61,593 nucleotides of DNA from a virus (taxonomy: Duplodnaviria; Caudoviricetes). A program made the position numbers and the translations under genes. Shown piece by piece: positions 8,141 through 55,820 of this stretch; position 1 is the first letter of the stretch; each line of letters opens with the position of its first letter. The notes under the pieces are model-generated. The model saw only the letters and a program-made list of their open reading frames with translations. It made no database searches and was not told the origin of the DNA. The stretch covers positions 1-61,593 of IMG/VR virus record IMGVR_UViG_3300022074_000038. One strand, given 5' to 3'.

Positions 8141-9892
8141 TTAGTTTGAGTCACCCTCATATCGGCAGGTCCACATGGTCAAGCTATACTTCTTTCCCCC
8201 ACGCAAAGGCAGAACCTTATGTCCATGTGTTACCATAGATGGAAACAAAATGCACTGTCCAACTTTTACATTCTTGTTTGTAAACTCTTGTCTGGGGAAA
8301 ACAAGCTCCGCACCAGCGTAATTGTCGTTGAGCTTTACGCTGCCTGTGAACAAAGAGGCATCTGTGTGCAGGCCTAATTCTGTCTGTGTGTCCATAGAAT
8401 AACGCATAGTAAAAGCATCACGCAATCCAAGGTAGGCTTCTGGATGCCAATGCTTCTCGCATATCTTACTAAGCTTATCTGCCCATTGTTCTGATATCTC
8501 GTCCCAAAATCCTAGTTCTTTAAGCCTTATCTCTTGCGCTGGAAACTTATCACCATCAAGCTCTCCCCATCTACCAAGGCTTTCTGATGCTTCAATGTAT
8601 CGTTGACACTGGGCCTCTGACATAAATTCAGCTACCAGTATTTCTGGTGCAACCTCTTCGTACTTAAGACCCTTATGGTATGTAGGAGATAAAACCTCTG
8701 CCTCTTCTACATATCCAAACTTATCTGCAAGATTTTTAAATCTTACCTTTGCGTCATCTCCACCGTTGCCGTGGTAAATACATGGGCAGCACATGCCGTT
8801 TGATAGTTGACCGTTAATAATCTTAATATCGTCATCACATTGAAAGATGTAGCCTTCGTAATCTAAATTAGCAGAAGCCGTGGATTGCCAGTCAGATGAT
8901 AAAAATCTTTTTTGCATCCATAGTTGATCATCAGAGTCATTGGGCACTGCCTCATTAAGAAACTCTTTGAGCGTACTCACTTTACCTATGTACGCGCCGC
9001 TGTTTAAGTACCTATAGATTGTTGACAAAGGAAATTCTGAGGCCATCGTCGCATCGGGCCAACAATTTTTTTCTGCTGCGAATATGATATTCGCACCCAT
9101 GTCCTCATATCTCTCTAGGATAGTAGGCAGTGTGTCGTTTATGATAACATCATACCCATCCACAAATAGAACCACATCCCCATCATGCAGGGATTCAAGG
9201 TGGTTGCGTACAAGATTGATCTTTTGACCGCCACCTTGGGCTTCCATTGTGCCACCAGACCAAATTACTTGACGACCCAAATTTAAGTACGTTATCCCGT
9301 GCGCTTTTGCAGATTGCTCTAAAGCCCACATTTTCCTTTGATCTGTTCCAACTGTAAGTACATGTACCTGCATTGATTCCCCCTCAATCGTGCTTGGTCT
9401 AACTTCTCTAGGTATCTGCTTAACCACCTCTGGTGTAAAGAAAAAGTTCGATTGAACTTTTAACTTAGCAGGCACCCACTCATCTACAGGGATGATAGCA
9501 TCCTTGTAGCCCTCTATCAATCTCTTGGCGGTTTCTGGTCTAATAGCGTAAGCATGACAATTATACCAATAGCCAAGAGTATTAAGGCGGTATCCCAGCC
9601 AAACGCTATCATGCTCTTTCAATAAAGTATCTACCGCACTGGGGTCAATACTGTCGTAGACTGCATCCTCTTCAAGGATTATCCCGTTTCGATTTGACGC
9701 AACTATCTTTTTCCAAACTTCAAGATGGCTTACCGCGCAACCAAACTCCGTAACTAACAGGGGCCTGTCAAGTATTGGATCACGCCACTGCATGTTTCTA
9801 ACACAGCCCGTCTCTTCCTCTACGGTACTCCAGTCTTTTCCCCGTGCATCATACGCAGATCCATGCAGAGAAATCTGATATACTATTGCCAC
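8141..9892 (-). CDS. Multidomain collagen-modifying enzyme: GT25 (COLGALT-like) + PLOD-type glycosyltransferase + 2OG-Fe(II) lysyl-hydroxylase-like domain
   Basis: GT25 motifs WRDPILDRPL..EFGCAVSHLEVW, ILEED, IPVDEWVP. PLOD GT motifs GGGQKI, LFVDGYDV, FAAEKNCWP, YLNSGAYIG, DDQL, HGNG. Oxygenase motifs RY..LGLHTDAS, FPSMVTHGH, KYSL. Confidence 0.85.
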   Translation of the reverse strand: MAIVYQISLHGSAYDARGKDWSTVEEETGCVRNMQWRDPILDRPLLVTEFGCAVSHLEVWKKIVASNRNGIILEEDAVYDSIDPSAVDTLLKEHDSVWLGYRLNTLGYWYNCHAYAIRPETAKRLIEGYKDAIIPVDEWVPAKLKVQSNFFFTPEVVKQIPREVRPSTIEGESMQVHVLTVGTDQRKMWALEQSAKAHGITYLNLGRQVIWSGGTMEAQGGGQKINLVRNHLESLHDGDVVLFVDGYDVIINDTLPTILERYEDMGANIIFAAEKNCWPDATMASEFPLSTIYRYLNSGAYIGKVSTLKEFLNEAVPNDSDDQLWMQKRFLSSDWQSTASANLDYEGYIFQCDDDIKIINGQLSNGMCCPCIYHGNGGDDAKVRFKNLADKFGYVEEAEVLSPTYHKGLKYEEVAPEILVAEFMSEAQCQRYIEASESLGRWGELDGDKFPAQEIRLKELGFWDEISEQWADKLSKICEKHWHPEAYLGLRDAFTMRYSMDTQTELGLHTDASLFTGSVKLNDNYAGAELVFPRQEFTNKNVKVGQCILFPSMVTHGHKVLPLRGGKKYSLTMWTCRYEGDSN

Positions 9893-10425
9893 CTTGGGCC
9901 TTCAAACCATGCAACAAGGCTTTTCCTTGTGCCGCTCGTGATTGGCGAAACTCTATGCTGCAAATAGCTTGGAAAAACTAGAACAGTTCCCTTGAGACGG
10001 GATGAAGCATCTGGCGTTTGGCATTCCGCGAACTCGAAGCCACCCCCCTCATATTCGCTTTGGTCTGAAAGCTGCACAGTTACGCTTAACTTTCTATCTC
10101 TCGCCTCGTTGCCATCCCAATTTACATCTATGTGCCAATCGTAATGACCACCTTTAGTAGCGTGATATTCTGTAAATTGAATATCGCATATATTCTCTAC
10201 TTGGAAATGAAAGGCGTTTTCGTTTGCAGCCTTAACATATTCCCAAAGAATATCTTGAACAGCATCATTGCCGCTCAACCAAGCAACATCGCTCGACCTT
10301 ACGCTTGTGTCTGCATTGTTAAAGGTTGTTGCCGCTTGTGTGTTCAGCTTAGAAGCTTCCGCAAAGATTATTGATAAATCACTATCGGAGAGGCCACCAG
10401 ACCACATCTGCCAGTTTTGTCGCAT
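9883..10425 (-). CDS. 2OG-Fe(II) oxygenase (prolyl-4-hydroxylase/PKHD-type)
   Basis: HYDWHID (HxD), RKLSVTVQLSD, YEGG, FPSYLQHRVSPITSGTRKSLVAW (distal His and Arg). Confidence 0.85.
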   Translation of the reverse strand: MRQNWQMWSGGLSDSDLSIIFAEASKLNTQAATTFNNADTSVRSSDVAWLSGNDAVQDILWEYVKAANENAFHFQVENICDIQFTEYHATKGGHYDWHIDVNWDGNEARDRKLSVTVQLSDQSEYEGGGFEFAECQTPDASSRLKGTVLVFPSYLQHRVSPITSGTRKSLVAWFEGPRWQ

Positions 10426-10447
10426 TAAATGCCCCCCAAATATAAAC

Positions 10448-10861
10448 TTATGCTGGTTTACTAGGCCATGTTATATCATGTGGAAACCCTACCTGCTGCG
10501 GAATATTTAGCAAGTCTGTTCTGTATTGCGTCCATGCTGCGCGTTGGGCATCTGTAAGACTATTCCAGCGCAAAGTATTCCCAGCGATAGGGTCAACCTC
10601 GTCCGTAAGCTTGTTATCCCTTACCATTCTTACATGTTGTGAGGCCTCTTCGTCTAACTCAGCTTGAGTTGGCGCAACATAAGCTGCTATGTTAGAACCC
10701 AAGATAATTTTTAAGTCTGCATTATTAATTGTTGTATCTGTGTCATCGTCACGAAGAGAGTAAGGTATCCAACCATAAAATGGATGATTGATTTCACAAT
10801 CTATATTCCCATCTGTATCCTTATAAACAGCGTTTCTTGCTTCTGTGATTTGTATAGCCAT
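10448..10861 (-). CDS. Tail fibre assembly chaperone (Tfa-like)
   Basis: C-terminal R..RD.KL...W..YR..L.NIPQQ.GFP..I.WP.KP signature. Confidence 0.75.
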   Translation of the reverse strand: MAIQITEARNAVYKDTDGNIDCEINHPFYGWIPYSLRDDDTDTTINNADLKIILGSNIAAYVAPTQAELDEEASQHVRMVRDNKLTDEVDPIAGNTLRWNSLTDAQRAAWTQYRTDLLNIPQQVGFPHDITWPSKPA

Positions 10862-10862
10862 G

Positions 10863-11231
10863 CTATGAAATCCTCACCCATAATGTGCCACCATAATAGC
10901 CAAAATTATTACCTGTATCAATAGGGGCCATGCAACGCCATGTTCCAGATAAACCAGTGGTTGAAGTTGTTGTGTTGTTGCTAAAACGCTCAAACTGGTT
11001 ACTAAAATCGCCCGTCATATTATAAAGCGAAGATGCTGCTATAGTATCACCACCAGCGTATTCATTGTAACGTGGCAAAAGCGCCCCAGTATAAGTTCCC
11101 ACAGCCCCATATGTGGTTGGTGGGCTACTAGCCGCTGAAATTGTGCTGGTTGTGGTGCTGTCTAAACTGGCAATATTCTGCAATTCTCTACTGTCATTTA
11201 CGACCGTTGTGCCGCTTATTTGAATAGCCAT
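10863..11231 (-). CDS. Small tail-fibre tip / associated protein
   Basis: 122 aa; AVGTY...LSGTWRCM...LWVRIS motif typical of short fibre tips, between the fibre and its chaperone. Confidence 0.6.
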   Translation of the reverse strand: MAIQISGTTVVNDSRELQNIASLDSTTTSTISAASSPPTTYGAVGTYTGALLPRYNEYAGGDTIAASSLYNMTGDFSNQFERFSNNTTTSTTGLSGTWRCMAPIDTGNNFGYYGGTLWVRIS

Positions 11232-11249
11232 CTTCGTGTCCTTCCACTA

Positions 11250-13451
<2,202 letters not shown>

Positions 13452-21054: not shown

Positions 21055-22004
21055 TTGGATTGATCCTTCAACATTTGCGCCACATATTGCTCATTCGAGA
21101 TACCAAGCCGCTTGGCGAGAGAGGCTTGCGTCGAGGTTAATCGCACTGTGCGTGGCTTTTTAGTCGTTCTTGACGGTGCAGCAACCACGGAGCTGGATTG
21201 ACGTTGGGGTGCTTCTTCCTCTATTTGCCCATCGTCAAACTTATCTGGAAAGGCTTTTCTCATAGCCTTGTCTATTTCATCATAATAGGAATCGCTTCTT
21301 GGATCAATCCCTGATTGTACGAGCTTTTGGTGTACCCCATATGCAAAGCCTGTCATCTCAGGAGTTTCAGGATTTTCAAACCAAGTGTTCTTTTTCCCCC
21401 ACTCAAGAGCTTTTACATCAGGTTTATTAGCTTGCGGGGTAGGTTGAGCATACTGCGGCTGCTGCTGCGGCGCGGTTCTAACCTGCGGTTTATAATTATT
21501 TACCCTATCAGCTTCTACTTTTAAGGTAGTTAATTGCTCTTGCGCTTCTATTAAAGCATCAGGATCTCCTGACTCATATGCAGCTTTATATGCAGATTTA
21601 GCCTTGTCTAGTTGCGCTTCGATACGCCCTTTAGCCTGCCCAATAAGGGTTTCTTCACCCGCATCAAGGTTTTTTCGTAGCTGCTCGTTTTCAGATTTAA
21701 TCTGTTGAGCATACCGCAAAGCCTCTTCTTGTAGCCTGTGGGCCTCAAGTTTTTGCCGTTCTTGCTCTTGCGCTTCAAATTTTAACTTATTTATACGCTT
21801 TTGAACCCCGACAGAATATTTATCTATCTCATCGTCAGAAGGCACTTCTGGCTCTCTATCTTCTGCCAAACGTGGTTTCTCTTCTTCAGGAGTGTCGTCA
21901 GACACTTCTATTTCAAACGAATCATCCGCAACATCTTGTGTTTCAGGTGATTCGTTTTCAAGATCTTGTTCTGTAAGCTCTGGTTTATCTGCCAAGTTAT
22001 TCAT
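21051..22004 (-). CDS. Capsid scaffolding protein
   Basis: 317 aa with an acidic N-terminus and long coiled coil, between portal and MCP. Confidence 0.7.
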   Translation of the reverse strand: MNNLADKPELTEQDLENESPETQDVADDSFEIEVSDDTPEEEKPRLAEDREPEVPSDDEIDKYSVGVQKRINKLKFEAQEQERQKLEAHRLQEEALRYAQQIKSENEQLRKNLDAGEETLIGQAKGRIEAQLDKAKSAYKAAYESGDPDALIEAQEQLTTLKVEADRVNNYKPQVRTAPQQQPQYAQPTPQANKPDVKALEWGKKNTWFENPETPEMTGFAYGVHQKLVQSGIDPRSDSYYDEIDKAMRKAFPDKFDDGQIEEEAPQRQSSSVVAAPSRTTKKPRTVRLTSTQASLAKRLGISNEQYVAQMLKDQSK

Positions 22005-22399
22005 ACCCGTGTGTACCCCCGTGGATCTTCAACAACAGCTTCAATAGTATCATCGTTTACTAAACGAAACTCTTTCCCATGTATTTTAAATCTAGTTCCT
22101 GAATAAGATCTAAAGATTACAAAATCACCTTCTTTGCAGTAGGCTCCATTTGGAAATCTGTCTTTATCAGAATACGCATCAGGGCCAGTTTTAAGCACAA
22201 ACCCTATGATAGAAGCGGTTTCTTCTGCCTGCCTAAGTTGGTCAGGCATATACACCCCGCCTTCGGTCTTCTCATTAACCTCAACAGTGCTAATAAGAAC
22301 TTTGTAGCCTTTTGGTTCTGGTAACTGAGTTGCTACTTTATCGTCAGTTACTTTTTCATCTTTATACATTGCATATACCTTGCAGTGATTAAGGTTCAC
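22001..22399 (-). CDS. groES: Co-chaperonin GroES-like protein (real start probably ATG at 22369)
   Basis: PKGYKVLI, EKTEGGVYMP mobile loop, GDFVIFRSYSGTRFKIHGKEFRLVNDDTIEAVV. Confidence 0.8.
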   Translation of the reverse strand: MNLNHCKVYAMYKDEKVTDDKVATQLPEPKGYKVLISTVEVNEKTEGGVYMPDQLRQAEETASIIGFVLKTGPDAYSDKDRFPNGAYCKEGDFVIFRSYSGTRFKIHGKEFRLVNDDTIEAVVEDPRGYTRV

Positions 22400-37428: not shown

Positions 37429-38265
37429 ATGGCTATCACAGAAAAGAAAATAGTAGAACCCTCTGCACAAACACTGCAAATCAGTCAGTTTAAAAAAGGG
37501 CGTGTTCGTTTACGGATGGTTGGTACAACGCCGTTGTACTTTAACAGCATGAGTGCAAAGACAATGAGAGATCTTGCTGCGCCTAAAGAAAAAATAAAAG
37601 GGAAGAAAAGCACAGGAATGAAGCACGATCCTGTTAAAGAGTTTTATGATTCCGCGTACAAAAAAGATTTTGGGGAGACAATGTTGTGTTTCCCTGCACC
37701 GGGGGTTAAAGCAGCTATGGCTACAGCGGCCCTAGAAACGGAGAACGTATCTAAAGCATCCGTGCAGCGTTTGATTTTTATGCCGCAAACTCATATTCAA
37801 ATTTGGGGTAAGCCACAATTAAAAACTGACATTGTTCGCACGGCAGATATTAAACGTACCCCAGATGTGAGGACACGTTGTTATTTACCGCGTTGGTGTG
37901 CGGAAGTTGATATCGCTTATGTCCAACCGACTTTAAGTGCTTATGGTATTGTTTCATTACTCAGCAATGCAGGCGCAATTATTGGCATTGGCGATTTTCG
38001 ACAAGAGAAAGGTCGCGGTTCATACGGCACGTTTGTTGTAGGTACAATGGACGAAGACGGCCATGATGATTGGACTGATCTTATGCCAGACGGTAGCTCT
38101 CCACAAAAAGTTTGGCAAGAGTTGATGTCTGAGGGGCGTGAGGTCCAACAGGCGGCTATGAGCAACCCTGAATATGCTGACGAAGTTACAGCGGATCTAG
38201 TTGAGTACGTTAAATCTGAGATGGATCGTAGGTTTGATCCAGACGTTCAGATAGCCGCAGAATAA
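37429..38265 (+). CDS. Stand-alone RAMP / Cas7-like RNA-binding protein (putative effector of the adjacent GGY-NN array)
   Basis: RAMP hallmarks: beta1 LRMVGTTPLYF, FPAPGVKAAM (compare PgSslKG), C-terminal Gly-rich loop GIGDFRQEKGRGSYGTF. Confidence 0.7.
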   Translation: MAITEKKIVEPSAQTLQISQFKKGRVRLRMVGTTPLYFNSMSAKTMRDLAAPKEKIKGKKSTGMKHDPVKEFYDSAYKKDFGETMLCFPAPGVKAAMATAALETENVSKASVQRLIFMPQTHIQIWGKPQLKTDIVRTADIKRTPDVRTRCYLPRWCAEVDIAYVQPTLSAYGIVSLLSNAGAIIGIGDFRQEKGRGSYGTFVVGTMDEDGHDDWTDLMPDGSSPQKVWQELMSEGREVQQAAMSNPEYADEVTADLVEYVKSEMDRRFDPDVQIAAE

Positions 38266-38289
38266 GCAAGCAGCGGTATCACTTTATTT

Positions 38290-38889
38290 GGTCGGGGTCC
38301 GGTACGATATGGTTGGGCGTGGAGAGTTACGGTGCGGCAAGGCGGTCGAGGCGCGGTATGGAGAGGTACGTTTCGTTCAGGTGGGGCGCGTTCAGGCGGT
38401 CGTGGTTCGGGTCGGTTTGGTCGGGTCGGGTGTGGTCAGTCAAGGCGGTCGAGGCGTGTTAGGTTGAGGCCTGTCTGGGTCCGTTTAGGTCCGGTCTGGC
38501 GGTCGAGGCGCGGTGAGTTGGGTTAAGGCACGGACGGGCGTGGCACGGCGGTCATGGTGTGGCATAGCAAGGCGAGGTTAGGCAACGGTTTGGCTAGGCG
38601 GTCTAGGCGCGGCGCGCTCGGCGCGGTTTGGTTTGGTCTGGATGGCTTGTTTGGATGCGGCAGGGCGGTCAAGTTAAGGCTTGTTGGGTCGAGGTGGCGA
38701 ACGGCGGGTTGCGGCAAGGCGGTCGGGGAACGGTTCGGTGAGGCATGGTAGCCGAGGTGAGGCTGGGTGAGTTTGGGTGTGGTTTTGGCAAGGCGGTCAC
38801 GGCACGGCTAGGTGCGGTCAGTTTAGGCGCGGTGGGGTTAGGCGGTTATGGCACGTCCCGATGCGGCGGGGCACGGTCGGGCTAGGCAC
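38290..38889 (+). ncRNA. GGY-NN pentamer array segmented by GGCGGTY anchors; putative guide-RNA array
   Basis: Anchors at 38341, 38395, 38444, 38498, 38547, 38597, 38664, 38718, 38792 and 38841; 7 of the 9 spacings equal 9+5n; no credible ORF. Confidence 0.75.
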
Positions 38890-38916
38890 TAGAATATAAT
38901 TTGGATTGGAGAAGAT

Positions 38917-39411
38917 ATGAATTTTAAGAAGAGTGATAAGCAAAGGCTTATAAATGAATATGCATCAGAAACGGGTAAGAATACCTTAGATGTTGCAGAC
39001 ATACGTGTTTGGTTAAAAGAAAAACCTAATCACGAATTTTACGAGTATGTCTTTGGTGCTTCTGATGATAAGAAGATTGAAGAATACGAGAAAGATCGTA
39101 TCTCAGGGTTAATTCGTGGTTTACGTATAACTGTAAAACATGAAGTGACAAAAGATGTTAAAGTTAGGATTAAAGTAGCAGATTACCCTGCTTACATTAG
39201 CCCTATGAAAGATAGGAAGCAGGGGGGCGGGTACGTACCCTTTGATCCTAATAGTGAGACTTCTCAACAGGAGTTAAGATTACAGGCAGCGCAGGCTATG
39301 GCTGCATGGATTTCACGTTATCGTGGGTGTGTTGAACACTCCGGTTACGACATTACTCCAATGGAAGAACTCGTTCATAAATTACGTGGCTTAGATGAAG
39401 AAGCCGCTTAA
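38917..39411 (+). CDS. Hypothetical protein, putative accessory of the RAMP-array locus
   Basis: 164 aa, starting 28 nt after the array; GGAGAAGAT-ATG RBS. Confidence 0.7.
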   Translation: MNFKKSDKQRLINEYASETGKNTLDVADIRVWLKEKPNHEFYEYVFGASDDKKIEEYEKDRISGLIRGLRITVKHEVTKDVKVRIKVADYPAYISPMKDRKQGGGYVPFDPNSETSQQELRLQAAQAMAAWISRYRGCVEHSGYDITPMEELVHKLRGLDEEAA

Positions 39412-39431: not shown

Positions 39432-39872
39432 ATGGCTATGGGTAAGAAAGCAGAAAAGGTTTGGGCGTACATTGTGAAGCATCCAACGGCCTCTAATGCA
39501 AAAATTGCTAAAGCGTGTAAGTGTTCGCCATCTTATATACACCTGCTAAAGAAAAAGATCGGCACACCGAAAGAGGTGTTGGAAGAAGTAAATCTAACTG
39601 TAACACGTTCCGAAGTCCTCGACACAGCTAAAGACTATGTGACGAAGGATCGCGCTGCGGAGCATGGTGACATGGAGACTAACTTCAACACCATTTCGCG
39701 ATACTGGTCTGTGCATCTGGATGCGCAAATAACCCCGACAGATGTTGCGGTTATGATGAACCTGCTCAAGGTTGCGCGGATAAAGTCTAACCCAAAGTCT
39801 AAAGATAATTGGGTTGATGGTGCAGGGTACATGGCTTGCGGTGGAGAGATTGCCAGTGCCTTACGTGCGTAA
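39432..39872 (+). CDS. HTH + DUF6378-like protein
   Basis: N-terminal HTH (ASNAKIAKACKCSPSYI); DRAAEHG..NF..I...W, DVAVMM.LLKVAR, DNWVDGAGY. Confidence 0.7.
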   Translation: MAMGKKAEKVWAYIVKHPTASNAKIAKACKCSPSYIHLLKKKIGTPKEVLEEVNLTVTRSEVLDTAKDYVTKDRAAEHGDMETNFNTISRYWSVHLDAQITPTDVAVMMNLLKVARIKSNPKSKDNWVDGAGYMACGGEIASALRA

Positions 39873-39985: not shown

Positions 39986-41812
39986 ATGGACATAGTGACG
40001 TTGGATTTCGAGACGTACTACGACAAGGAGTACAGCCTGTCGAAGATGACGACTGAAGAATACGTGCGTGATAAGCGTTTTGAGGTTATAGGCCTTGCGA
40101 TTAAAAAGAACAGTAAGCCTACTAAATGGATTACCAGACCAGCACTAATAGAAAGTTTACTATCACACATAGACTTCTCTAACAGTGCTATACTTTGCCA
40201 TAACACTATGTTTGATGGCGCAATACTTTCATGGCGGTACGGTGTAAAACCAAAAGTTTGGTTTGATACAATGTGTATGAGCCGTGCCCTACACGGTATA
40301 GAAACCAGTGCTTCTTTAAAAGCGGTAGCGGAACGCTACGGCGTAGGTGTTAAAGGTACAGAAGTTAATAACGCTAAAGGTAAACGCCAATCCGATTTTA
40401 CTGTACAAGAGCTTGCAAGCTACGGCGAATATGGAAAAAACGATGTAGATTTAACTCATAATTTATTTAGGATTATGGGGCAGGCGTTCCCTCGACAAGA
40501 ATTAAAGTTGATTGATTTAACTCTACGGATGTTCATTGAACCCACATTAGATTTGGATTTAGGATTGCTTGAGCAGCATTTAGAAGACACTCGTGAACGC
40601 AAAGACAAACTATTGCGCGACGCAAATGTCACCGACAAAAAAGATTTGATGTCAAACCCTAAGTTCGCCGACATGCTAAGAGAGCTTGGTGTGGAACCAC
40701 CTATGAAAATAAGCCCAACTACAGGCAAGCAGACATACGCTTTAGCCAAAGCTGATGAAGGTTTTAAAGCCTTACAAGAACATGAAGATGATAGGGTACA
40801 AACTTTAGTCGCTGCACGTTTGGGTAGCAAAAGTACCTTAGAGGAAACACGCACCGAGAGGTTTATATCTATTAGTAAACGTGGGCTTCTTCCGGTCCCT
40901 GTTAGATACTACGCTGCTCACACAGGTAGATGGGGCGGGGCCGATAAGATAAACTTACAAAATTTACCGAGCCGTGGGCCAAATGCAAAGAAGCTGAAAA
41001 AAGCATTGGTTGCTCCCGAAGGCTATACGCTCATAGATGCAGACAGCGCGCAGATTGAAGCTAGAGTTCTGGCATGGTTTGCAGGGCAAGATGATCTTAC
41101 AACTGCATTCGCAAACGGTGAGGATGTGTACATAAAAATGGCTGCACGTATATATGGATGTGAAGAAGAGGACGTTACGAAAGATCAACGCTTTGTAGGT
41201 AAAACTACTATCCTTGGCGCAGGCTACGGCATGGGGGCTGAGAAGTTTGGCACACAATTAAAGACGTTTGGGTATGAAGTATCACCTGACGAAGCAAGAA
41301 GAATTATAAAAATTTACCGCGATGCTAACTATAAAATTAGTAAGGTATGGCGCGATGCCCATTACATGGTGCAGCAGCTTACCAATGGTAGATCTGCTAT
41401 GTTTGGTCGAAAGGGCGTTGTTAAGGTATCGGGAGATAGCAGTTCATTAGTTATGCCTAATGGCCTTAGTATTATTTATGATAATCTAAATAGTGAACAA
41501 GGTGAAAAAGGTCTTGAGTATAGTTATAAAACTCGACGTGGGCGTACTAGAATATACGGCGGTAAGGTAATTGAGAACGTGTGCCAAGCACTAGCACGTT
41601 GTATTATAGGTGAGCAAATGTTAAGAATAAGTAAGAAACGCAAGGTTGTGCTTACCGTACACGACTCGATTGTTTGCTGTGTGAAGGATGAAGAAGTACC
41701 CGAAGCGCAAGCGTTTATTGAGGATTGTATGCGATGGACGCCTGACTGGGCAGTGGGCCTACCTGTAGATTGCGAGAGCGGCACAGGTAAATCATACGGA
41801 GATTGTGAGTGA
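39986..41812 (+). CDS. polA: DNA polymerase family A with 3'-5' exonuclease
   Basis: ExoI LDFETY, HNTMFD; TGRW..NLQNLP; motif A DSAQIEAR; motif B RFVGKTTILGAGYG; motif C TVHDS. Confidence 0.93.
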   Translation: MDIVTLDFETYYDKEYSLSKMTTEEYVRDKRFEVIGLAIKKNSKPTKWITRPALIESLLSHIDFSNSAILCHNTMFDGAILSWRYGVKPKVWFDTMCMSRALHGIETSASLKAVAERYGVGVKGTEVNNAKGKRQSDFTVQELASYGEYGKNDVDLTHNLFRIMGQAFPRQELKLIDLTLRMFIEPTLDLDLGLLEQHLEDTRERKDKLLRDANVTDKKDLMSNPKFADMLRELGVEPPMKISPTTGKQTYALAKADEGFKALQEHEDDRVQTLVAARLGSKSTLEETRTERFISISKRGLLPVPVRYYAAHTGRWGGADKINLQNLPSRGPNAKKLKKALVAPEGYTLIDADSAQIEARVLAWFAGQDDLTTAFANGEDVYIKMAARIYGCEEEDVTKDQRFVGKTTILGAGYGMGAEKFGTQLKTFGYEVSPDEARRIIKIYRDANYKISKVWRDAHYMVQQLTNGRSAMFGRKGVVKVSGDSSSLVMPNGLSIIYDNLNSEQGEKGLEYSYKTRRGRTRIYGGKVIENVCQALARCIIGEQMLRISKKRKVVLTVHDSIVCCVKDEEVPEAQAFIEDCMRWTPDWAVGLPVDCESGTGKSYGDCE

Positions 41813-49070: not shown

Positions 49071-52000
49071 TTAGTAAAGTTGCAAGCCTTGGTCAAATTC
49101 CTTCAAGCTTTGCTCCATAAATGGAGTGTAAGTCATACCGCCGCGCATCTTTTCTGTAGTTCTACCAAAAGAACCAAGTGATCTGCGCTTTGTATCTCCA
49201 ATTATAAGTGACTTACGTGCGCCTTCTGGAAGACCTGAATTAAATCTTGCTATCTTTTCATCAACTCTGCGAACTTCTTCAAAATCGCCCTCACGGTAAG
49301 CCATGTTTCTTTGGCGCAGTAGTTTACTACGGCGACTGTTAATAGCTTCCTGTCTACGGCGATTGTTTTTATTAAACTCAAGCTGCTGTATATATGCTTG
49401 AGGTGCAAATCCTGCCGCCTGCATTACTATATTGTATGGATTTATGTCTTCTGTGATCGGATCACCACGGCGAGTTGTTGCGCCCTCTCGCGCAAACCGT
49501 TCCGCTTTTGAAAAGTTACGAAGAGCAGAGGGGGCCATAGCCTCAAGACCCCTACGTACTTCTCCACTCGCAACATCTTTTACCCCTCTACTCATAGATA
49601 AATATGTGCCAAGTACAGGGCCACCTAGCTGTTCCGCTAAAGTCCAAAGTGCATCTTGATCTTTATCAATGATCGGTGCGCGATATAGTAGGCTGTTCAT
49701 GGAAACACGATTTGCTACGTCTACACCTAATATTTCATTTGCGAGGCCACCGTATATACCCTCGCCGACTACTTTACGTGTGGCGGCTTCAAAGTCATCT
49801 TCGTCGTCATCCCTAAACAAGTTGTAGATAGCACCGAAAGTTCCCATCAACGGCATCCCACCAAGCCCTGACAGCATCCCCGTCATCACTAAAAAGTTAC
49901 GCGATCCTGCACGAGCAGCTTTCCTGCTGTCAGCTATATCTTGTGCTTTTTGTAGCGACACACCTTCGTCAGCCATAATCTTATCTACATTGGTGGTCTT
50001 AATACTCTCTTTCGCAAGACGCTCCATCATGTAATATTTACTGATTGCAAAGCGTTTAAATAAGAATAGCACGTTACCTATACCAGATTGCGCTACAATC
50101 GGGCGTCCTGCCGCCGCAGTTGCACCCAACGTAAACTCAGTATCATCAATAGCATTCTGTGCAGCCTGCTTATAGTCTGCGTCTGTTGGATTTTTATTCT
50201 TTTTGAGGAGTTTTTTAACTTCTAATAAATAAGACGCCTGTAGAGTTGCTTCCCTGTTAATGCGTTCTGAATGGTGGAACATAAAACTAGATATACGGTT
50301 CACAGATTCTAGCGGGGCGTCCCTACCAATATCTAAATTTTCTTGTGTAATAGATTGATTGAATTGAGCTTGATCCAGCCCACTCTCAACAAGAATATCC
50401 ATGCGTACATCTTTACCAAAACGCTCTAAAAGTTGTTGAGGGGTATAATTTGCGATTGTTTTACCTTGAACACCCATATTTATTTCTTGCTCTACAGGCT
50501 GACCGTCTGGGCCAGTCACCATAACAATGCGAGTAGTTGGTGCGTTCATCAAGGCTCGCATGGCATCGCCATATGCTGCTGTTGTAGCACGTATGCCATG
50601 TTTACCTGCTAAGATAGGCATGGCACTCATTGCTACGTCAAAAAACGTAATCGCTGCTGACGATAAGTTGAGGCCCATAGTCATACCGAACCCTAAGCTA
50701 GTAGCAACTTGTGACCAACGAGGTACATTTGGGCTTTGTGCAAATGTAGCGATCTTATCTAGTTTTTGCGCAGTCATCGCCGTTTCAGGATTAGTTAAAT
50801 ACCCAGCTTCTGGATCAGCTAACTTCTTGCGGAAATTTTCTATTTCTGCTGCGGAACGTAGTTGTACTAGCTGGCGGTTAAGATCGCGGCCTTTCTCTTT
50901 AAGCATTGTATATGCGTCAAATTCTTGACCAAGGATACCTGTCGGTGTCGTATCCCCGATAAAACCTCGTATACCTTTACGCCGCCTAAAGTTCTGCATA
51001 AACGACCGCTCGGGCATTGCATCAAGCGCAAGGTCCACAAGCTGCTGCATAGCCTGTTTATAATCTTCATCCGAATTAAAGTTTTCGCGTTGCAGTTGTA
51101 CAGTTTCTAAAACATTACGTACAAAGCTAGTGGATGGCGCACGTTCAAAGTTCATAGCTCTTGAAGCTTCAGTAACTTCTACATCCGTACCGCCCACTTT
51201 GGAAACCATATCTCTGGCTTGCTGCGCTTTGCGTAGGGTCGGGTAATATTCTACGTACAGCTCTGGTTGTCCTGTATCTGGATCAGGCGCAGTATACACC
51301 AGTCTGTAATTACCTTTACGCTGCAAGGGGAAATAAGGTCTAATTACACCGCTATCTTTTTCTAGTAACTCACGTAAACGTGCAAACGCTGTTTTACGTA
51401 CCGCTGCGTCTGGAATAGTAGCCGCGAGCCGTGCGTCTAAAGCGGCAATGATGTCATCGTAAGTATCTTGGAAGTAATTACGTAGTTGTCTATATAGTTC
51501 CTGACCTTTTTTATCCATACTCAGGTACTGCTTGCGTAGCTGTTTATATTCAGCCATGCGTTGCTTATCATCTTTAAAAGTAGCTGTGTATTTTTTATCA
51601 GTGCGGGATGGATCTACTTTTAAATAAGTGCTTCGCGGAATTATATTATCTAATGTTCTAGCGTGATTTTTGTTTTTACGTTGCCATTGCTTTAAATCAT
51701 ACGTCATTGAACCTAGAATTTCGGTCTTTTCCCTAAGCCGACCACTCATGCGATTAATGATAGTATTTAATTCTTTAGCAAACGGTATCTTATCTTGTGC
51801 TTTTTCGGTTAAAATATTTACGGGTAGCACGTTTAAATACCAGCTTTTAGCAGTTTTAGCTATTCCTTCGTTAAACATAACATCCGATGCATCTAAAACT
51901 TTGTCTTTAACATCAAAATTAGACATGCTTTGTAAGAGGCGTGAACTACCTTCTTTTGTGCCTGCTTCTAGGAGTATATCTGGCGCTGCGCGTGTTGCGG

Positions 52001-55000
52001 GTGAGGGAGCCAACATCCCCTGTATAACCCGATCTATCTCTGTTAGCGCGCTTGGTGATGGAGATAAACGTAACACTTTACGAATGACACGCATAACAGC
52101 ATCGTAATACTTCTCTATGCCTGATCGCTTACCGCCATCTACTCGAAGAAGCGTAAGTGCGCTTCTAAACTCGGGATTACCTTGAGACTCAGCTACAAAC
52201 TCGTCCAAGTTTTTTGTGCCGTATACTTCACCAAATTGCTCACGCGCTGCGTTAAGCAATGCTTGTAATTGTTTCGTCTCTGGTAATGAGGGGTTAGCTA
52301 TTGCAGCAGAAGTAGCCGCATGTGACATCTCGTGCAGTATAGTATGCACATTCATGCCACGGTTTGCGTCGATCTGTATCGTATTTGTTTCTGGACTAAA
52401 CAGACCAGCAGCGGTGCGCCCCACAACCTGAGACAAATCATCAACCACTTGCACTTGTGTATCACCAACAACATTTGCAAACGCTGCCGCTATCCTACGA
52501 ACATCTTCAACTTGGTTTGTTGAGGCTATAGCGTTTAACGCAAAACCTAGATCCCCACGTTGTAGTGCGTTACGAATGCTTGGAAGTAACGCTTGATCTA
52601 GCCCATGCACAGGATCAATAAGTAGGAAACCTAGCTCACTTTCAGTGTAAGCAAAACTATCATAGAAATCCATAAGCTCTTCGTCGGTTAGAGCTTTTTT
52701 AGTATTAGGGTCTATGAATACATAGTCATCTTGCTTGGGTACTTTGCGTTTCTTAAAGCCCAAACCAAGCAAGTAAGAATCAAAAGTTGTTTGACCTTTT
52801 ATAAGTTCAGTTGCACCAACCGCGCCTTCTGCTCGCATCTCTTGATCTGGTGCGGCAGGATCGCGAGTCTGTGCTTCTAGTTTAAGCGCATCAAGCTCAC
52901 GATCCATTTGTTTTTGAAACGCTCTGTCATCTTTGCGTTTGATACTTTTGGCTGCTTTAGTTACAGCAATAACCGCATCGGATGGATTAAACTTAGATGT
53001 ATCTCTACGTGCCAATACATTCGCATCGCGTGTCTTTACAAAGGCTTGACGAGACAGATTATCAAACACCCACTTCCGTGCATCCATAGCAGACTTTTGA
53101 GTCATGCCCTTGTAGAAGGCAAAGTCAGCCGTCATATCTTCAGATTTTAAATCTTCTTCTGTTTTTATGGGTTTACTATCTTTATCTAAATTATAGTCTT
53201 TTACAAAGTCCAATTTAAAAGTTTGAGTTGGCCCAATAGCACTAACCATACCCATTTCGGCGAGAGCATCAACAGGTCTACGGAACCGTTTAAAGTATAA
53301 CTTTGCGGCTTTAGCTTGCACGTCGAGTTCTTTGTCAGAGGTTTCTAGTAACTCTGCAACACCTTCTTTATCTACAGCAGTTGTGGTTTCTGGCGCAGAG
53401 CGTGGATCTAGTTGCGTGTCGTGATACTCCCGAATCTGTGGCTGCTTACCCCTATTGTTTTCAAATGTTCGCTCAATACGCGCTTGTGCTACTGCGTCTC
53501 GCTCTGCTTCTACTGCCTGTAGCTGTTCTTGTGGGACAGGCGCGGCTTGTATTAGCGGTGCAGCGGGTACTTGTACAGCCGCAGGTATAACTTGCTCTGC
53601 GGCCCCCGTCACTGTCCCGCCAATACCCGTTTTAGGTGCAGGAACTTTTAATGGTTCAGGTTGCCCTTCAGCTAAAACCGCCTTCCTTTTGTTTAATTCT
53701 TCTGGCTCTACAAGAACTTCCGCAGGTGTATCGTATCCTGATTCTTCTTTTGCATCTCTAATTTTTTGTGCATATAACTTTGGGTCGGCGGCGATACGCT
53801 TTCGCTCTGCCGCTAATGCTTCAGAATCTTTTTTTAATGCACTTGGCTGTTCTCTTGCTGGATCTAATGCACTTGGCTGTTCTCCTGCTGGATCTGTAGT
53901 TCTACCAGAAGGCAGCAGATCTGTTCCCACTCTTTTATTGTTAGGTTCAACAGGGGTTTCGGCACTGTCAATTCCACTTTGTGCCCCTGTGCTTCCATCC
54001 AAGCCTGTTCTACTACTTGGAATGCTAACTCCAGCTTTTTCTGCGATAGGTTTAACATCGGCACCTTTCAACTTATCTAGATATTCTTTAACTTTAGGTG
54101 AACTACCCCCATTCTTTACATATAATTCTAGTTCTTCACGTACTTTTGGATCATCAGAAGACAACCCTACAATGGATCGCTTTGCGCCTCTTACGATATG
54201 TGCGTATGGTTGGACGCCTAACTCTTCAACCAAAAATTCTTTTGTAACCTTGTTTTCTTCTGGTATAATTTCTGGGCTTGGTTTTGAATCAACCTGTATA
54301 TTTTCACCAGTCTGCTCGCTCTTAGCCGCCGCAGCTAAGTTTTTTCCTACTCGTTTTTTAGCTATTATTGCTTCAATAAGTTCTGGAGAATACTCTGTGT
54401 CTAGCTCTTGTCTTATAAAGTCTTCATCCAAATTAGGATCTGTGAGACGAGGATCTGTGGCTATTGCTGCTTCTACTTCTGAAGCAGAGAAAACGGATTG
54501 TTTTTTAAGGTATTCATCAGTTTTAGCCGCTGCTTTACCATCCGCATTTTCAGCTTCTCTTGTAACCGCAGCTTGTTGATTTGTGCTGGTATCTATCTCA
54601 GCCGCTGCCGCTGCTTGGGCTTCATTAGTTTCTTGTGCTTTACCTTCGGGAGGCGCAGGGTTTGCAGCGTTCCGTGCTTCGGTTTGTTGTGCTGGAGTTG
54701 CTTCGGTTTGTTGTGCTGGAGCTGCTTCGGTTTGTTGTGCTGGAGCTGCTTCGGTTTGTTGTGCTGGAGTTGTTGTATCTACGATGGGTTCTACAGCGCC
54801 AGTATCGGTATCAGTTTCAACTTCTAACGCGGCTTTCTTTTTAGCGTCTAGCGCGGCTTTCTTTTCCGCTTTTAATCTAGCTTTTCTCTCAGCCCCGGTT
54901 TCAGGAATACCTTGAAACGCACCGAATGTAGCTCGTGTACCGCCACCAATTAAACCGCCTGCGATAGCAGCTTCACGATATTCTGCGATGGCATCGTCAC

Positions 55001-55820
55001 TGTCGATGGCTAAACCAGCTTGCGCTCGCTCCATCACTTGCTGACCGACTTCTGTTAAACCTTCAGTGGTCGCACCGCCACCTGCACGGCTCGCTGTGCG
55101 AGTAAATATTGATTTGCCAAGAGGACGTAGAACACCACCCAGCAAGATCTTATCAGCTAAACCTTCAAGCGTAGCTTGTCCAAACGTAGCGGTAAGAGCG
55201 GCTCCAATATCTACACTTGTTTTTCTACCTGCTGCAACTTCGTCTTCTTGCCGTTGAATGTTGTTACCAAACAAAATCGGCGCAGTCGCTCCTGCCGCTG
55301 CCGCAACACCGACACCAAATCCTGCTAAACCTGTGGCTCCTGCTACAGCAGGCGCTAATGCCGCTGCGCCTAAACCAAGACCTAATTGAGGTATTTGTTC
55401 ACCAACAACTTGACCTGCAAAGGTGAACGCATCGCCAAAACTATCTACGTCAGTAGATTGCAGTCTTTCGGGCTGCTCAAGAAGTAATTCGCCTAGTCTT
55501 TGTCTGGCTTTTTCTTCCGTATCTTGTCCGTATTGCGCTAGAAATCCTAGTCCCGCCTGCTCTCCCGCAGTGCCTACTGTTTCACCGATTGCGCTTTTAA
55601 TTTGTTGATATCCACGGCGTAACCCACCACGAACAGCGGTTTCATCATCGGACTCAAACTCTTCCCCAAAAACAGATTGATACTTTTGCCCATAATCAAC
55701 ACGTTCACCGTCTAAATATTGACGTATTTTAACAAAATCTTCATTGCTAGGGTTATCTCCTGCAATGTTAAAGTTGTAGCTGCGCTGCGTTTGTGGGTCG
55801 GTGTATTGGTATACGCCCAT
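49071..55820 (-). CDS. Very large internal virion / DNA-ejection protein with a zincin-like motif
   Basis: 2249 aa; hydrophobic Gly/Ala N-terminal region; ILHEMSH...DEFVAE; last gene of the internal-protein cluster. Confidence 0.75.
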   Translation of the reverse strand: MGVYQYTDPQTQRSYNFNIAGDNPSNEDFVKIRQYLDGERVDYGQKYQSVFGEEFESDDETAVRGGLRRGYQQIKSAIGETVGTAGEQAGLGFLAQYGQDTEEKARQRLGELLLEQPERLQSTDVDSFGDAFTFAGQVVGEQIPQLGLGLGAAALAPAVAGATGLAGFGVGVAAAAGATAPILFGNNIQRQEDEVAAGRKTSVDIGAALTATFGQATLEGLADKILLGGVLRPLGKSIFTRTASRAGGGATTEGLTEVGQQVMERAQAGLAIDSDDAIAEYREAAIAGGLIGGGTRATFGAFQGIPETGAERKARLKAEKKAALDAKKKAALEVETDTDTGAVEPIVDTTTPAQQTEAAPAQQTEAAPAQQTEATPAQQTEARNAANPAPPEGKAQETNEAQAAAAAEIDTSTNQQAAVTREAENADGKAAAKTDEYLKKQSVFSASEVEAAIATDPRLTDPNLDEDFIRQELDTEYSPELIEAIIAKKRVGKNLAAAAKSEQTGENIQVDSKPSPEIIPEENKVTKEFLVEELGVQPYAHIVRGAKRSIVGLSSDDPKVREELELYVKNGGSSPKVKEYLDKLKGADVKPIAEKAGVSIPSSRTGLDGSTGAQSGIDSAETPVEPNNKRVGTDLLPSGRTTDPAGEQPSALDPAREQPSALKKDSEALAAERKRIAADPKLYAQKIRDAKEESGYDTPAEVLVEPEELNKRKAVLAEGQPEPLKVPAPKTGIGGTVTGAAEQVIPAAVQVPAAPLIQAAPVPQEQLQAVEAERDAVAQARIERTFENNRGKQPQIREYHDTQLDPRSAPETTTAVDKEGVAELLETSDKELDVQAKAAKLYFKRFRRPVDALAEMGMVSAIGPTQTFKLDFVKDYNLDKDSKPIKTEEDLKSEDMTADFAFYKGMTQKSAMDARKWVFDNLSRQAFVKTRDANVLARRDTSKFNPSDAVIAVTKAAKSIKRKDDRAFQKQMDRELDALKLEAQTRDPAAPDQEMRAEGAVGATELIKGQTTFDSYLLGLGFKKRKVPKQDDYVFIDPNTKKALTDEELMDFYDSFAYTESELGFLLIDPVHGLDQALLPSIRNALQRGDLGFALNAIASTNQVEDVRRIAAAFANVVGDTQVQVVDDLSQVVGRTAAGLFSPETNTIQIDANRGMNVHTILHEMSHAATSAAIANPSLPETKQLQALLNAAREQFGEVYGTKNLDEFVAESQGNPEFRSALTLLRVDGGKRSGIEKYYDAVMRVIRKVLRLSPSPSALTEIDRVIQGMLAPSPATRAAPDILLEAGTKEGSSRLLQSMSNFDVKDKVLDASDVMFNEGIAKTAKSWYLNVLPVNILTEKAQDKIPFAKELNTIINRMSGRLREKTEILGSMTYDLKQWQRKNKNHARTLDNIIPRSTYLKVDPSRTDKKYTATFKDDKQRMAEYKQLRKQYLSMDKKGQELYRQLRNYFQDTYDDIIAALDARLAATIPDAAVRKTAFARLRELLEKDSGVIRPYFPLQRKGNYRLVYTAPDPDTGQPELYVEYYPTLRKAQQARDMVSKVGGTDVEVTEASRAMNFERAPSTSFVRNVLETVQLQRENFNSDEDYKQAMQQLVDLALDAMPERSFMQNFRRRKGIRGFIGDTTPTGILGQEFDAYTMLKEKGRDLNRQLVQLRSAAEIENFRKKLADPEAGYLTNPETAMTAQKLDKIATFAQSPNVPRWSQVATSLGFGMTMGLNLSSAAITFFDVAMSAMPILAGKHGIRATTAAYGDAMRALMNAPTTRIVMVTGPDGQPVEQEINMGVQGKTIANYTPQQLLERFGKDVRMDILVESGLDQAQFNQSITQENLDIGRDAPLESVNRISSFMFHHSERINREATLQASYLLEVKKLLKKNKNPTDADYKQAAQNAIDDTEFTLGATAAAGRPIVAQSGIGNVLFLFKRFAISKYYMMERLAKESIKTTNVDKIMADEGVSLQKAQDIADSRKAARAGSRNFLVMTGMLSGLGGMPLMGTFGAIYNLFRDDDEDDFEAATRKVVGEGIYGGLANEILGVDVANRVSMNSLLYRAPIIDKDQDALWTLAEQLGGPVLGTYLSMSRGVKDVASGEVRRGLEAMAPSALRNFSKAERFAREGATTRRGDPITEDINPYNIVMQAAGFAPQAYIQQLEFNKNNRRRQEAINSRRSKLLRQRNMAYREGDFEEVRRVDEKIARFNSGLPEGARKSLIIGDTKRRSLGSFGRTTEKMRGGMTYTPFMEQSLKEFDQGLQLY
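54675..54770 (-). repeat. 4 x 24-bp tandem repeat (xPAQQTEA)
   Basis: TGCTTCGGTTTGTTGTGCTGGAGY repeated 4 times. Confidence 0.9.

Follow-up and report, generated by a model that had tools for sequence, protein, structure and literature searches.

VIPR (Viral Interference Programmable Repeat) systems, which silence genes under RNA guidance, were first described in 2026, in three bioRxiv preprints. According to the defining passages, they combine a Vipr protein of the RAMP type, guide RNAs (vrRNAs) in which GGY and NN alternate over 9-16 repeats, and an accessory gene, vap, and are found mainly in viruses, mostly phages (10.64898/2026.04.26.720920). Here we describe a locus of this kind in the whole 61,593-nt virus record IMGVR_UViG_3300022074_000038 (Caudoviricetes), hereafter the window, whose source is an uncultured marine phage. 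The locus comprises a gene for a 278-aa protein (vipr), a G-rich array and a gene for a 164-aa protein. It is a member of the published VIPR class in its staggered-array form, and it is not a CRISPR-Cas system. We consider it very probable that the phage uses it as a VIPR system that silences targets through an array of 11 vrRNA units. A preliminary description of this DNA, made from the sequence alone, had named VIPR-type systems as a match, and these are indeed in print.

Several published properties are needed for the comparison. Under the 1-nt-skip rule, each NN dinucleotide base-pairs with the DNA of the target, in which one base in three, usually at the codon wobble position, is skipped (10.64898/2026.04.26.720920). 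The same preprint distinguishes seven types, of which types III-V carry predicted nuclease or helicase vap genes, and names 'staggered arrays with overlapping vrRNAs' among the forms that arrays take. Its calling rule asks for at least four tandem YNNGG / GGYNN units in an adjacent non-coding tract. Its text allows 'a related consensus', and the Cas7 query behind the discovery was 6ifn chain E. Structures of the SUSP1 system, in the passages that describe them, show each 5-nt repeat occupied by a single protomer, the GGY being sequestered and the NN displayed; G1 is contacted by H17 and D177, G2 by R138 and W178, and Y3 by residues that include R179 (10.64898/2026.04.26.720927). The SUSP1 VIPR silences a satellite gene in register with codons (10.64898/2026.10.15.759431), and the experiments reported in these sources to date concern mainly two type II systems.

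A pentameric array between two genes

The preliminary description had reported a 278-aa gene, a ~600-nt G-rich array 25 nt later and a 164-aa gene, all on one strand, and this layout was borne out at the coordinates given in Table 1. The spacer between the two genes (38266-38916) contains 292 G among 651 bases (45%), with G autocorrelation of 0.34, 0.26 and 0.23 at lags of 5, 10 and 15, and its periodic tract (38290-38889) begins 25 nt past the vipr stop codon. Chance would not produce anything close to this pattern: all 12 strict in-phase GGYNN runs of at least three units in the 61.6-kb window lie within 38331-38889 on the + strand, with none on the - strand, and the longest strict GGY runs, of up to five units, are found nowhere else in the window. 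Likewise, the 13 bins of 200 nt that hold at least five GGY-GGY pairs at distance 5 all start at 38201-38801 (+ strand median 0 pairs per 200 nt, 95th percentile 1, maximum 18; - strand maximum 2). Tandem Repeats Finder returned short rows only, of period 9, 10 or 15, and the tract is therefore a periodic code rather than a classical repeat.

A second level of order is imposed by the heptamer GGCGGT[C/T], which occurs in 10 copies (38341, 38395, 38444, 38498, 38547, 38597, 38664, 38718, 38792 and 38841) at spacings of 49, 50, 54, 67 or 74 nt. Dynamic-programming parsing resolved the tract into 11 units of the form GTCNN-(G[G/T]YNN)n-GGCG, with ~9-15 pentamers each and an overlap of 1 nt between neighbours: the G after GGCG closes one register and opens the next. 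Because this junction G is shared, 7 of the 10 junction-to-junction distances equal 5k-1 nt. The preliminary count of ~11 guides agrees with the parse, although the guides are not free-standing but staggered around a constant GGCGGTC junction. Three units (U5, U6 and U8) may be decayed or fused, since they contain additional steps of 4 or 6 nt.

In a set of 375 unique guides drawn from 75 sources, the pentamer is constrained at its first three positions and nearly free at the last two. Position 1 is G in 87% of cases, position 2 is G in 66% and T in 25% (G or T, 91%), and a pyrimidine (C or T) fills position 3 in 92%, while each base takes 19-30% of positions 4 and 5. The constant GGY scaffold proposed earlier is thus recovered as a constrained triplet, with a second position looser than strict GGY. 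A quite different reading would make the tract a structural or regulatory element, such as two-tier G-quadruplex repeats, iterons or a recombination hotspot, next to a RAMP-like general RNA-binding protein. GGNNN repeats could in principle form two-tetrad G-quadruplexes, no regular long repeat was found by Tandem Repeats Finder and no promoter stands out. The near uniformity of positions 4-5 beside fixed positions 1-3 and the strict strand asymmetry of the array nevertheless make us give this explanation very little credence, and the protein and target data below tell against it further.

We found no Rfam match in the array at E <= 1, neither a hammerhead nor any other known RNA, and the tract, periodic throughout, has no room for a structured tail, its sole constant part being the 7-nt GGCGGTC. 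How the units would be separated can be read in two ways. In the less favoured one, the locus forms a VIPR-type ribonucleoprotein whose array stays uncut, with one or a few long scaffold RNAs in a continuous or kinked Vipr filament and GGCGGTC as a register-shift hinge rather than a site of processing. This reading draws on the lack of a ribozyme or structured tail, on the 4- or 6-nt steps inside U5, U6 and U8, and on the nucleotide shared by neighbouring units, owing to which a single clean cut cannot leave both neighbours with full ends. The legend of fig. S18 in the defining preprint speaks instead of 'individual processed vrRNAs' in staggered arrays (10.64898/2026.04.26.720920), and both the turnover of whole units and the extent of a target match, described below, respect the junctions. 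We regard an uncut array as unlikely.

A Cas7/Csm3-like protein precedes the array

Subunits of the Cas7 family, such as Csm3, polymerise along their guide with a fixed nucleotide period. The 278-aa translation contains all three motifs on which the preliminary description had based its RAMP proposal: GTTPL (residues 32-36), FPAPGVKAAM (88-97) and the glycine-rich loop GIGDFRQEKGRGSYG (186-200). An AlphaFold2 model built with 30 homologues (pLDDT 70.3, pTM 0.69) has an RRM core and thumb at residues ~19-218, the G-loop at G186-G200 and a C-terminal helical region at 225-277. The Foldseek comparison suggested at the outset gave 26 PDB matches at E <= 0.001, Csm3 chains first and 6ifn_F at the top (E 1.7e-5, prob 1.00). 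A second look with the structural aligner VIA matched residues 19-218 at Z 9.0 (rmsd 3.5, 132 aligned) to 7.0, with 24 chains at Z >= 8 and named CRISPR complexes or subunits in 49 of the best 50 rows; sequence identity to these Cas7/Csm3 matches is 8-18%. By its predicted fold, the 278-aa protein is a Cas7/Csm3-like RAMP.

At the sequence level the protein has no family in Pfam or PADLOC, and its sole match among PHROGs is phrog_4652 (E 2e-13), whose function is not annotated. Homologues at E <= 0.001 number 1342 proteins in one database and 1681 representatives in another, unnamed and mostly metagenomic; the clade is very abundant and common in marine viral metagenomes. The top PDB sequence match is the 'SUSP1 Vipr protein' (36pp_D), at E 0.17 with the single sequence and 0.016 with a profile. 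The alignment lays GIGDFR on SUSP1 GVGDWR, which places D189-F190-R191 opposite D177-W178-R179 (F for W, both aromatic), and these three residues are invariant in 30 of 30 aligned homologues. SUSP1 contacts H17 and K33 lie outside the aligned stretch of ~53 residues. Conservation of a triad that would bind GGY argues against a general RNA-binding protein beside a non-guide element. The preliminary description had further proposed one subunit per 5-nt unit, with GGY as scaffold and NN displayed, and this is the arrangement shown for SUSP1 (10.64898/2026.04.26.720927).

The cassette is conserved while its guide units turn over

We compared the loci of the best 80 of 557 confirmed IMG/VR relatives. 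An array follows vipr directly on the + strand in 74 of the 80 and on the - strand in none, so the expectation that homologues would be accompanied by an array held. Among the six loci without an array call, two have at most 33 bases downstream and four (L066-L069) have a weaker array; L066, the one of these four that was read, contains four GGCGGTC. A homologue of the 164-aa protein comes after the array in 68 loci, and the 12 lacking one are all truncated, ending within about 1.1 kb after vipr. In 67 of those 68 loci the spacer holds at least three GGCGGT[CT] (median 8), at a density of 13.6 per kb inside the spacer versus 0.28 per kb outside; the exception, L078, has GGCGGGC instead of GGCGGTC as its junction. 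The window's flanking genes recur in only 14-19 of the 80 loci, and vipr, array and accessory gene therefore move as a cassette. One relative (L075) carries the cassette between terL and the portal gene, with a second array after the accessory gene.

The units themselves change faster than the protein. Four loci whose Vipr is 99% identical (L001-L004) share U0, U1, U5, U6 and U7 with the window at 96-100%, and the remaining units differ or are replaced. RNA-seq libraries from two studies yielded contigs that run from the 3' end of vipr into the array and that cover several stretches within it; they give only a hint of array expression, and gaps in their coverage carry no meaning. One of these contigs (run X19) joins 38394 to 38498, with exactly U2 and U3 missing, and is a natural array variant with its breakpoints at two GGCGGTC junctions. 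Whole units are thus gained, lost or replaced between near-identical phages and in this contig with breakpoints at the junctions, which speaks against an array that functions uncut.

Several further features were seen in the relatives. In most of them a conserved hairpin, GGGGCAGCAATGCCCC, followed by a T-rich run, stands between the vipr stop codon and the first unit (for example L005 4838-4880 and L011 3909-3950), and is missing from the window and L001-L004; it could serve for attenuation, as a processing signal or for stability. The L078 array is nearly pure GGC/NN with 51% G, and a second one comes after the accessory gene (3915-4527 and 5052-5265). Positions 1-5421 of L075 form a head module of terL, cassette, second array, portal and S78 prohead protease. 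Distant homologues of the 278-aa protein (28-30% identity, E about 1e-16) occur in two cultured Gordonia terrae phages, Gordonia phage Ecliptus (L121, OP820472.1, 1980-2836) and Gordonia phage UmaThurman (L122, NC_031249.1, 1986-2933), both with a + strand GG-period-5 array directly 3' of the homologue gene; the UmaThurman array overlaps annotated 'hypothetical protein' gene 40, probably a spurious ORF (open reading frame). Weak homologues were also found in 25 Mycobacterium phage records and in Pseudomonas phage LESphi2, where arrays lie upstream of the homologue gene.

A terminase gene as candidate target of U1

Guide patterns were built by the published 1-nt-skip rule, with the NN dinucleotides joined by one wildcard. 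Searches of public collections used exact patterns for U0, U1, U3, U4, U7, U9 and U10, leaving out U2 for its low complexity and U5, U6 and U8 for their irregular registers. The gapped NN.NN.NN search that had been advised in the preliminary description succeeded in part: U1 gave in-frame terminase targets, and the six other guides searched gave no convincing one.

Among the local sequences, the best U1 site agrees at 19 of 20 informative bases (L075:33), versus a maximum of 16 in 30 shuffles; best local sites of the other window guides fall within their shuffle nulls, and the window itself holds no guide match above the null. In five whole target records (117 kb), U1 alone exceeded the order-shuffled null. 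The exact 20-base U1 pattern has 10 matches in IMG/VR, all of them in frame 0 of ORFs of 362-654 aa and encoding the peptide [DE]AI[ED]TSQGA, with varying wobble bases. All three full ORFs scanned carry TerL_ATPase and TerL_nuclease, and the L075 fragment carries the TerL nuclease domain. The window's own terminase belongs to another family, the Terminase_6 type, and has no U1 match. Ten matches out of ten in frame are hard to reconcile with a structural or regulatory tract, and the U1 match runs from the first NN after GGCGGTC to the last variable NN before the next junction, as would suit a separate guide better than an uncut array.

Elsewhere the exact searches gave little, and those with the like-built patterns of the six other guides serve as empirical nulls for U1. 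U0, U3, U4, U7 and U10 had no exact matches in IMG/VR; the one U9 match there is out of codon frame in a 402-aa ORF and was taken as chance, as were six U7 matches among contigs of the much larger metagenome set, which share no gene family, frame or GC content. The exact U1 pattern had no match in 596 Gb of prokaryote genome contigs. An Ala variant of U1, present among the relatives' guides, had 10 matches in prokaryote genomes: three in Paracoccaceae/Rhodobacteraceae (two genomes), one in Microvirga and six in other metagenome-assembled genomes (one labelled archaeal), which is only a hint of the host.

The guides of relatives point the same way. A best local site with at most one mismatch was found for 11 of 375 guides at skip 1, for one at skip 0, for one at skip 2 and for none after shuffling, and an enrichment specific to the 1-nt skip is again at odds with a non-guide element. 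Relatives' guides match further sites in the same terminase family. Guides from other VIPR loci find sites in both terL and the protease gene of L075 (window U1, 19/20; an L021 guide, 18/18); in the prohead protease gene an L036 guide agrees at 21 of 22 bases (one mismatch), and an L033 guide matches the same site with two mismatches. Family-level matches fall on both strands, as expected for DNA recognition. In all 10 of its matches U1 has the coding-strand sequence and could therefore pair with the template DNA strand, not with terL mRNA, which also fits DNA recognition.

The accessory protein and the fate of the target

The 164-aa gene has a GGAG 5-8 nt upstream of its ATG and is vap-like by position and linkage only. 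Its product is predicted to consist of an N-terminal four-helix domain (residues 5-66) and a C-terminal helical hairpin (114-157), in a model with pLDDT 82 and pTM 0.44. The protein is well conserved: aligned homologues share an invariant R100-x2-G103-G-G-Y106 loop, further invariant residues and a nearly invariant F109-D-P111. No Pfam or PHROG family was found, and no nuclease or helicase family in Pfam, PHROG or PADLOC, the last of which returned RdrA only (E 0.014). A PDB profile search gave nothing better than E > 0.4, Foldseek had no match at E <= 0.001, and the best VIA match (Z 5.0) covers the C-terminal hairpin. A winged helix was considered for the N-terminal domain, which resembles small helical domains including the ArgR DNA-binding domain at Z 3.8-4.4, and was rejected as too weak. 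The predicted complex of Vipr with the 164-aa protein scored 0.00 and carries no weight either way.

A system of this kind might destroy or otherwise act on its target rather than silence it, if the 164-aa protein supplied or recruited a nuclease or if the target were RNA. Types III-V with predicted nuclease or helicase vap genes offer a precedent in the published passages (10.64898/2026.04.26.720920), and an accessory protein with no family or fold assignment leaves room for such an activity. Set against this are the absence of any nuclease, helicase, Pfam, PHROG or PADLOC family beyond the RdrA match and, for an RNA target, the sense orientation of U1 in 10 of 10 matches together with family-level matches on both strands. 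We consider this alternative rather improbable, less so than a non-guide role for the tract and more so than an uncut array.

Proposed mechanism

We propose + strand transcription of the array, probably along with vipr, because no hairpin or terminator lies between them in the window. The transcript would give rise to as many as 11 vrRNAs, each about 50-75 nt long and built as GTCNN-(G[G/T]YNN)n-GGCGG, one G being shared with the neighbour. One Vipr protomer would then bind each pentamer, D189-F190-R191 holding G-G/T-Y and leaving the two variable bases displayed, a step that we infer from the structures of SUSP1 and from the conservation of the triad. The dinucleotides so displayed would pair with double-stranded DNA while every third target base is skipped, and the guide would therefore read codon positions 1-2 and ignore the wobble. 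U1 appears to be aimed at the conserved [DE]AI[ED]TSQGA site in the large-terminase gene (TerL_ATPase/TerL_nuclease type) of an unrelated phage family. By analogy with SUSP1 and its vap1, the likely outcome would be that a DNA-packaging gene of a competitor is transcriptionally silenced in cells that are co-infected or lysogenic, with the 164-aa protein as accessory factor.

Several observations weigh against this proposal. On the protein side, confidence in the Vipr model is middling (pLDDT 70) and Foldseek TM-scores to Csm3 are low (0.26-0.39); similarity to SUSP1 Vipr, the one characterised Vipr in the comparison, is weak and confined to ~53 residues of the thumb-to-G-loop stretch, in which the SUSP1 thumb contact R138 stands opposite L153, so that not all published contacts can be mapped. 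Neither Foldseek nor VIA found a recognisable DNA-binding or other fold in the 164-aa protein. On the RNA side, nothing in the array resembles the pseudoknot or structured 3' tail found in the tested type II vrRNAs, promoter-like and terminator-like sites do not exceed their numbers in shuffles, and the RNA-library contigs are of low depth, with no strand or ends visible and DNA carry-over possible. Small-RNA sequencing is named as confirmation in the published passages for ribozyme arrays and single-vrRNA systems, not for staggered arrays (10.64898/2026.04.26.720920). Among the targets, U1 alone of the 7 publicly searched window guides has a convincing one, the six metagenome matches of U7 have no gene family or frame in common, the local target set is enriched in terminase loci fetched with U1, and the 11 guides with skip-1 sites are related and fall on about 8 distinct sites.

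A more far-reaching joint reading, which we offer tentatively and as a whole rather doubt, would treat the clade as an uncharacterised VIPR form whose guides need no structured tail or ribozyme. In it, the shared G of GGCGGTC would end one Vipr filament register and start the next, guide ends would be set by Vipr itself or by a ruler-like host RNase, and the 164-aa protein, marked by its invariant R-x2-GGGY loop and nearly invariant FDP, would be an accessory factor distinct from the published vap1-6. The guides' aim would be conserved genes of head morphogenesis (large terminase, prohead protease) in HK97-like phages that share the hosts, and some of these phages would carry VIPR cassettes of their own, amounting to an arms race of VIPR-bearing phages.

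Genomic context

The locus lies, as the preliminary description had it, between a VRR-NUC gene and the PolA module: Pfam identified an Hjc/VRR-NUC-like ORF on one side and DUF6378 and DNA_pol_A on the other (Table 1). The Pfam scans covered 68 ORFs of the window (cut-off E 1 for 7 of them, E 1e-5 for the other 61), and other matches include a terminase of the Terminase_6 type, a capsid protein, adaptor proteins of the SU10 type and a collagen-like fibre. The claim that cas genes and a CRISPR array are absent was upheld: none of the 68 ORFs belongs to a Cas family, and no CRISPR-like repeat-spacer array was found in the 61.6 kb. The remaining direct-repeat families of the window lie within coding sequence, for example the collagen-like repeats at 12006-12869. 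Megablast found no close DNA relative among 50,697 deposited phage genomes.

Table 1. Positions of the VIPR locus, its array units and the adjoining genes in the window
Feature	Position	Strand	Remarks
Hjc/VRR-NUC-like ORF, 94 aa	37128-37412		Pfam Hjc E 6.3e-5, VRR_NUC E 0.097
vipr, 278 aa	37429..38265	+	ORF
Short leader between vipr stop codon and first unit	38266..38289	+	Without the GGGGCAGCAATGCCCC hairpin
vrRNA array, 600 nt	38290..38889	+	11 staggered units
U0	38291..38345	+	11 pentamers; NN = GG CC AC AT TG GT GA AC GC AA, then constant GGCGG; 100% identical in L001-L004
U1	38345..38399	+	NN = GA GC AT GA AC TC CA GG GC CA
U2	38399-38448	+	Low complexity; another unit there in L001-L004
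U3	38448-38502	+	Another unit there in L001-L004
U4	38502..38551	+	10 pentamers
U5	38551-38601	+	Internal 4-/6-nt irregular steps; 96% in L001-L004
U6	38601-38668	+	Internal 4-/6-nt irregular steps; 96% in L001-L004
U7	38668..38722	+	11 pentamers; 100% identical in L001-L004
U8	38722-38796	+	Irregular
U9	38796-38845	+	
U10	38845-38889	+	Final unit; without closing GGCGGTC
vap-like accessory gene, 164 aa	38917..39411	+	ORF
DUF6378	39432-39872		Pfam
DNA_pol_A (family-A DNA polymerase)	39986-41812		Pfam E 4.5e-40

Away from the locus, a cluster of genes on the - strand codes for a protein of collagen-like repeats with a Peptidase_S74 chaperone domain (11253-13442) and, near it, for a fusion of a PLOD-type glycosyltransferase with a 2OG-Fe(II) oxygenase (8144-9892) and for a second 2OG-Fe(II) oxygenase (9886-10425). 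The cluster at 8144-13442 suggests that the phage modifies its own collagen-like fibre. The - strand also carries an ORF of 2249 aa whose sole family match is an LPD39 domain (49074-55820) and a phage-encoded Cpn10 (GroES-like) co-chaperonin (22004-22399).

Comparison with described systems

The fold of the 278-aa protein invites comparison with type III CRISPR-Cas systems. Its best structural matches are type III Cas7/Csm3 chains (PDB 6ifn, 9g9i and 6xn3; Z 8-9 over residues 19-218), with which it shares an RRM core, a glycine-rich loop and a thumb. A type III-like CRISPR-Cas assignment was nevertheless rejected: there is no cas10, cas6, cas1 or cas2 among the 68 ORFs, no small subunit and no repeat-spacer array in the window. 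The period differs as well, at 5 nt with two pairing bases versus 6 nt with five pairing bases in type III.

The SUSP1 type II system shares with the locus the RAMP fold, a G-loop of the form G-x-G-D-[W/F]-R, 1-nt skipping in which the wobble is passed over, targets in competing mobile elements and, as we infer for the Vipr of the window, one pentamer per protomer. The two Vipr proteins differ in length (202 aa in SUSP1, 278 aa here). SUSP1 vrRNAs are about 100 nt long with an invariant 3' tail and pseudoknot, whereas the window has 11 tail-less units; the SUSP1 vrRNAs lie one upstream and three downstream of the genes, those of the window in the interval from vipr to the accessory gene. The SUSP1 target is a satellite, and the window's one resolved target is a phage terminase gene. 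Because the structured 3' tail is absent, the locus does not belong to type II (the SUSP1 / P. fulva clade).

The closest likeness is to the staggered arrays of the published text, which share with the locus a phage-borne Vipr RAMP and vap gene, the absence of cas genes, GGY/NN-type pentamers and successive vrRNAs that overlap by 1 nt (10.64898/2026.04.26.720920). Features observed here that do not appear in the published passages are the GGCGGTC junction, a G or T at the second scaffold position and the terminase target; the word 'terminase' has no occurrence in the main text of that preprint, and in 10.64898/2026.10.15.759431 it occurs in methods passages only. The locus cleanly exemplifies the staggered, tail-less array as it occurs in nature, and it offers a concrete candidate for a natural target: a terminase site that is conserved and is read with its wobble positions passed over. 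Its guide units turn over between phages with 99% identical Vipr, and the cassette is found in differing genomic contexts; at 2 kb, it is a compact locus for studying staggered-array maturation. The junction grammar of GGCGGTC, the terminase target and unit-wise guide turnover go beyond the published passages, and with them the published VIPR picture is extended, not changed.

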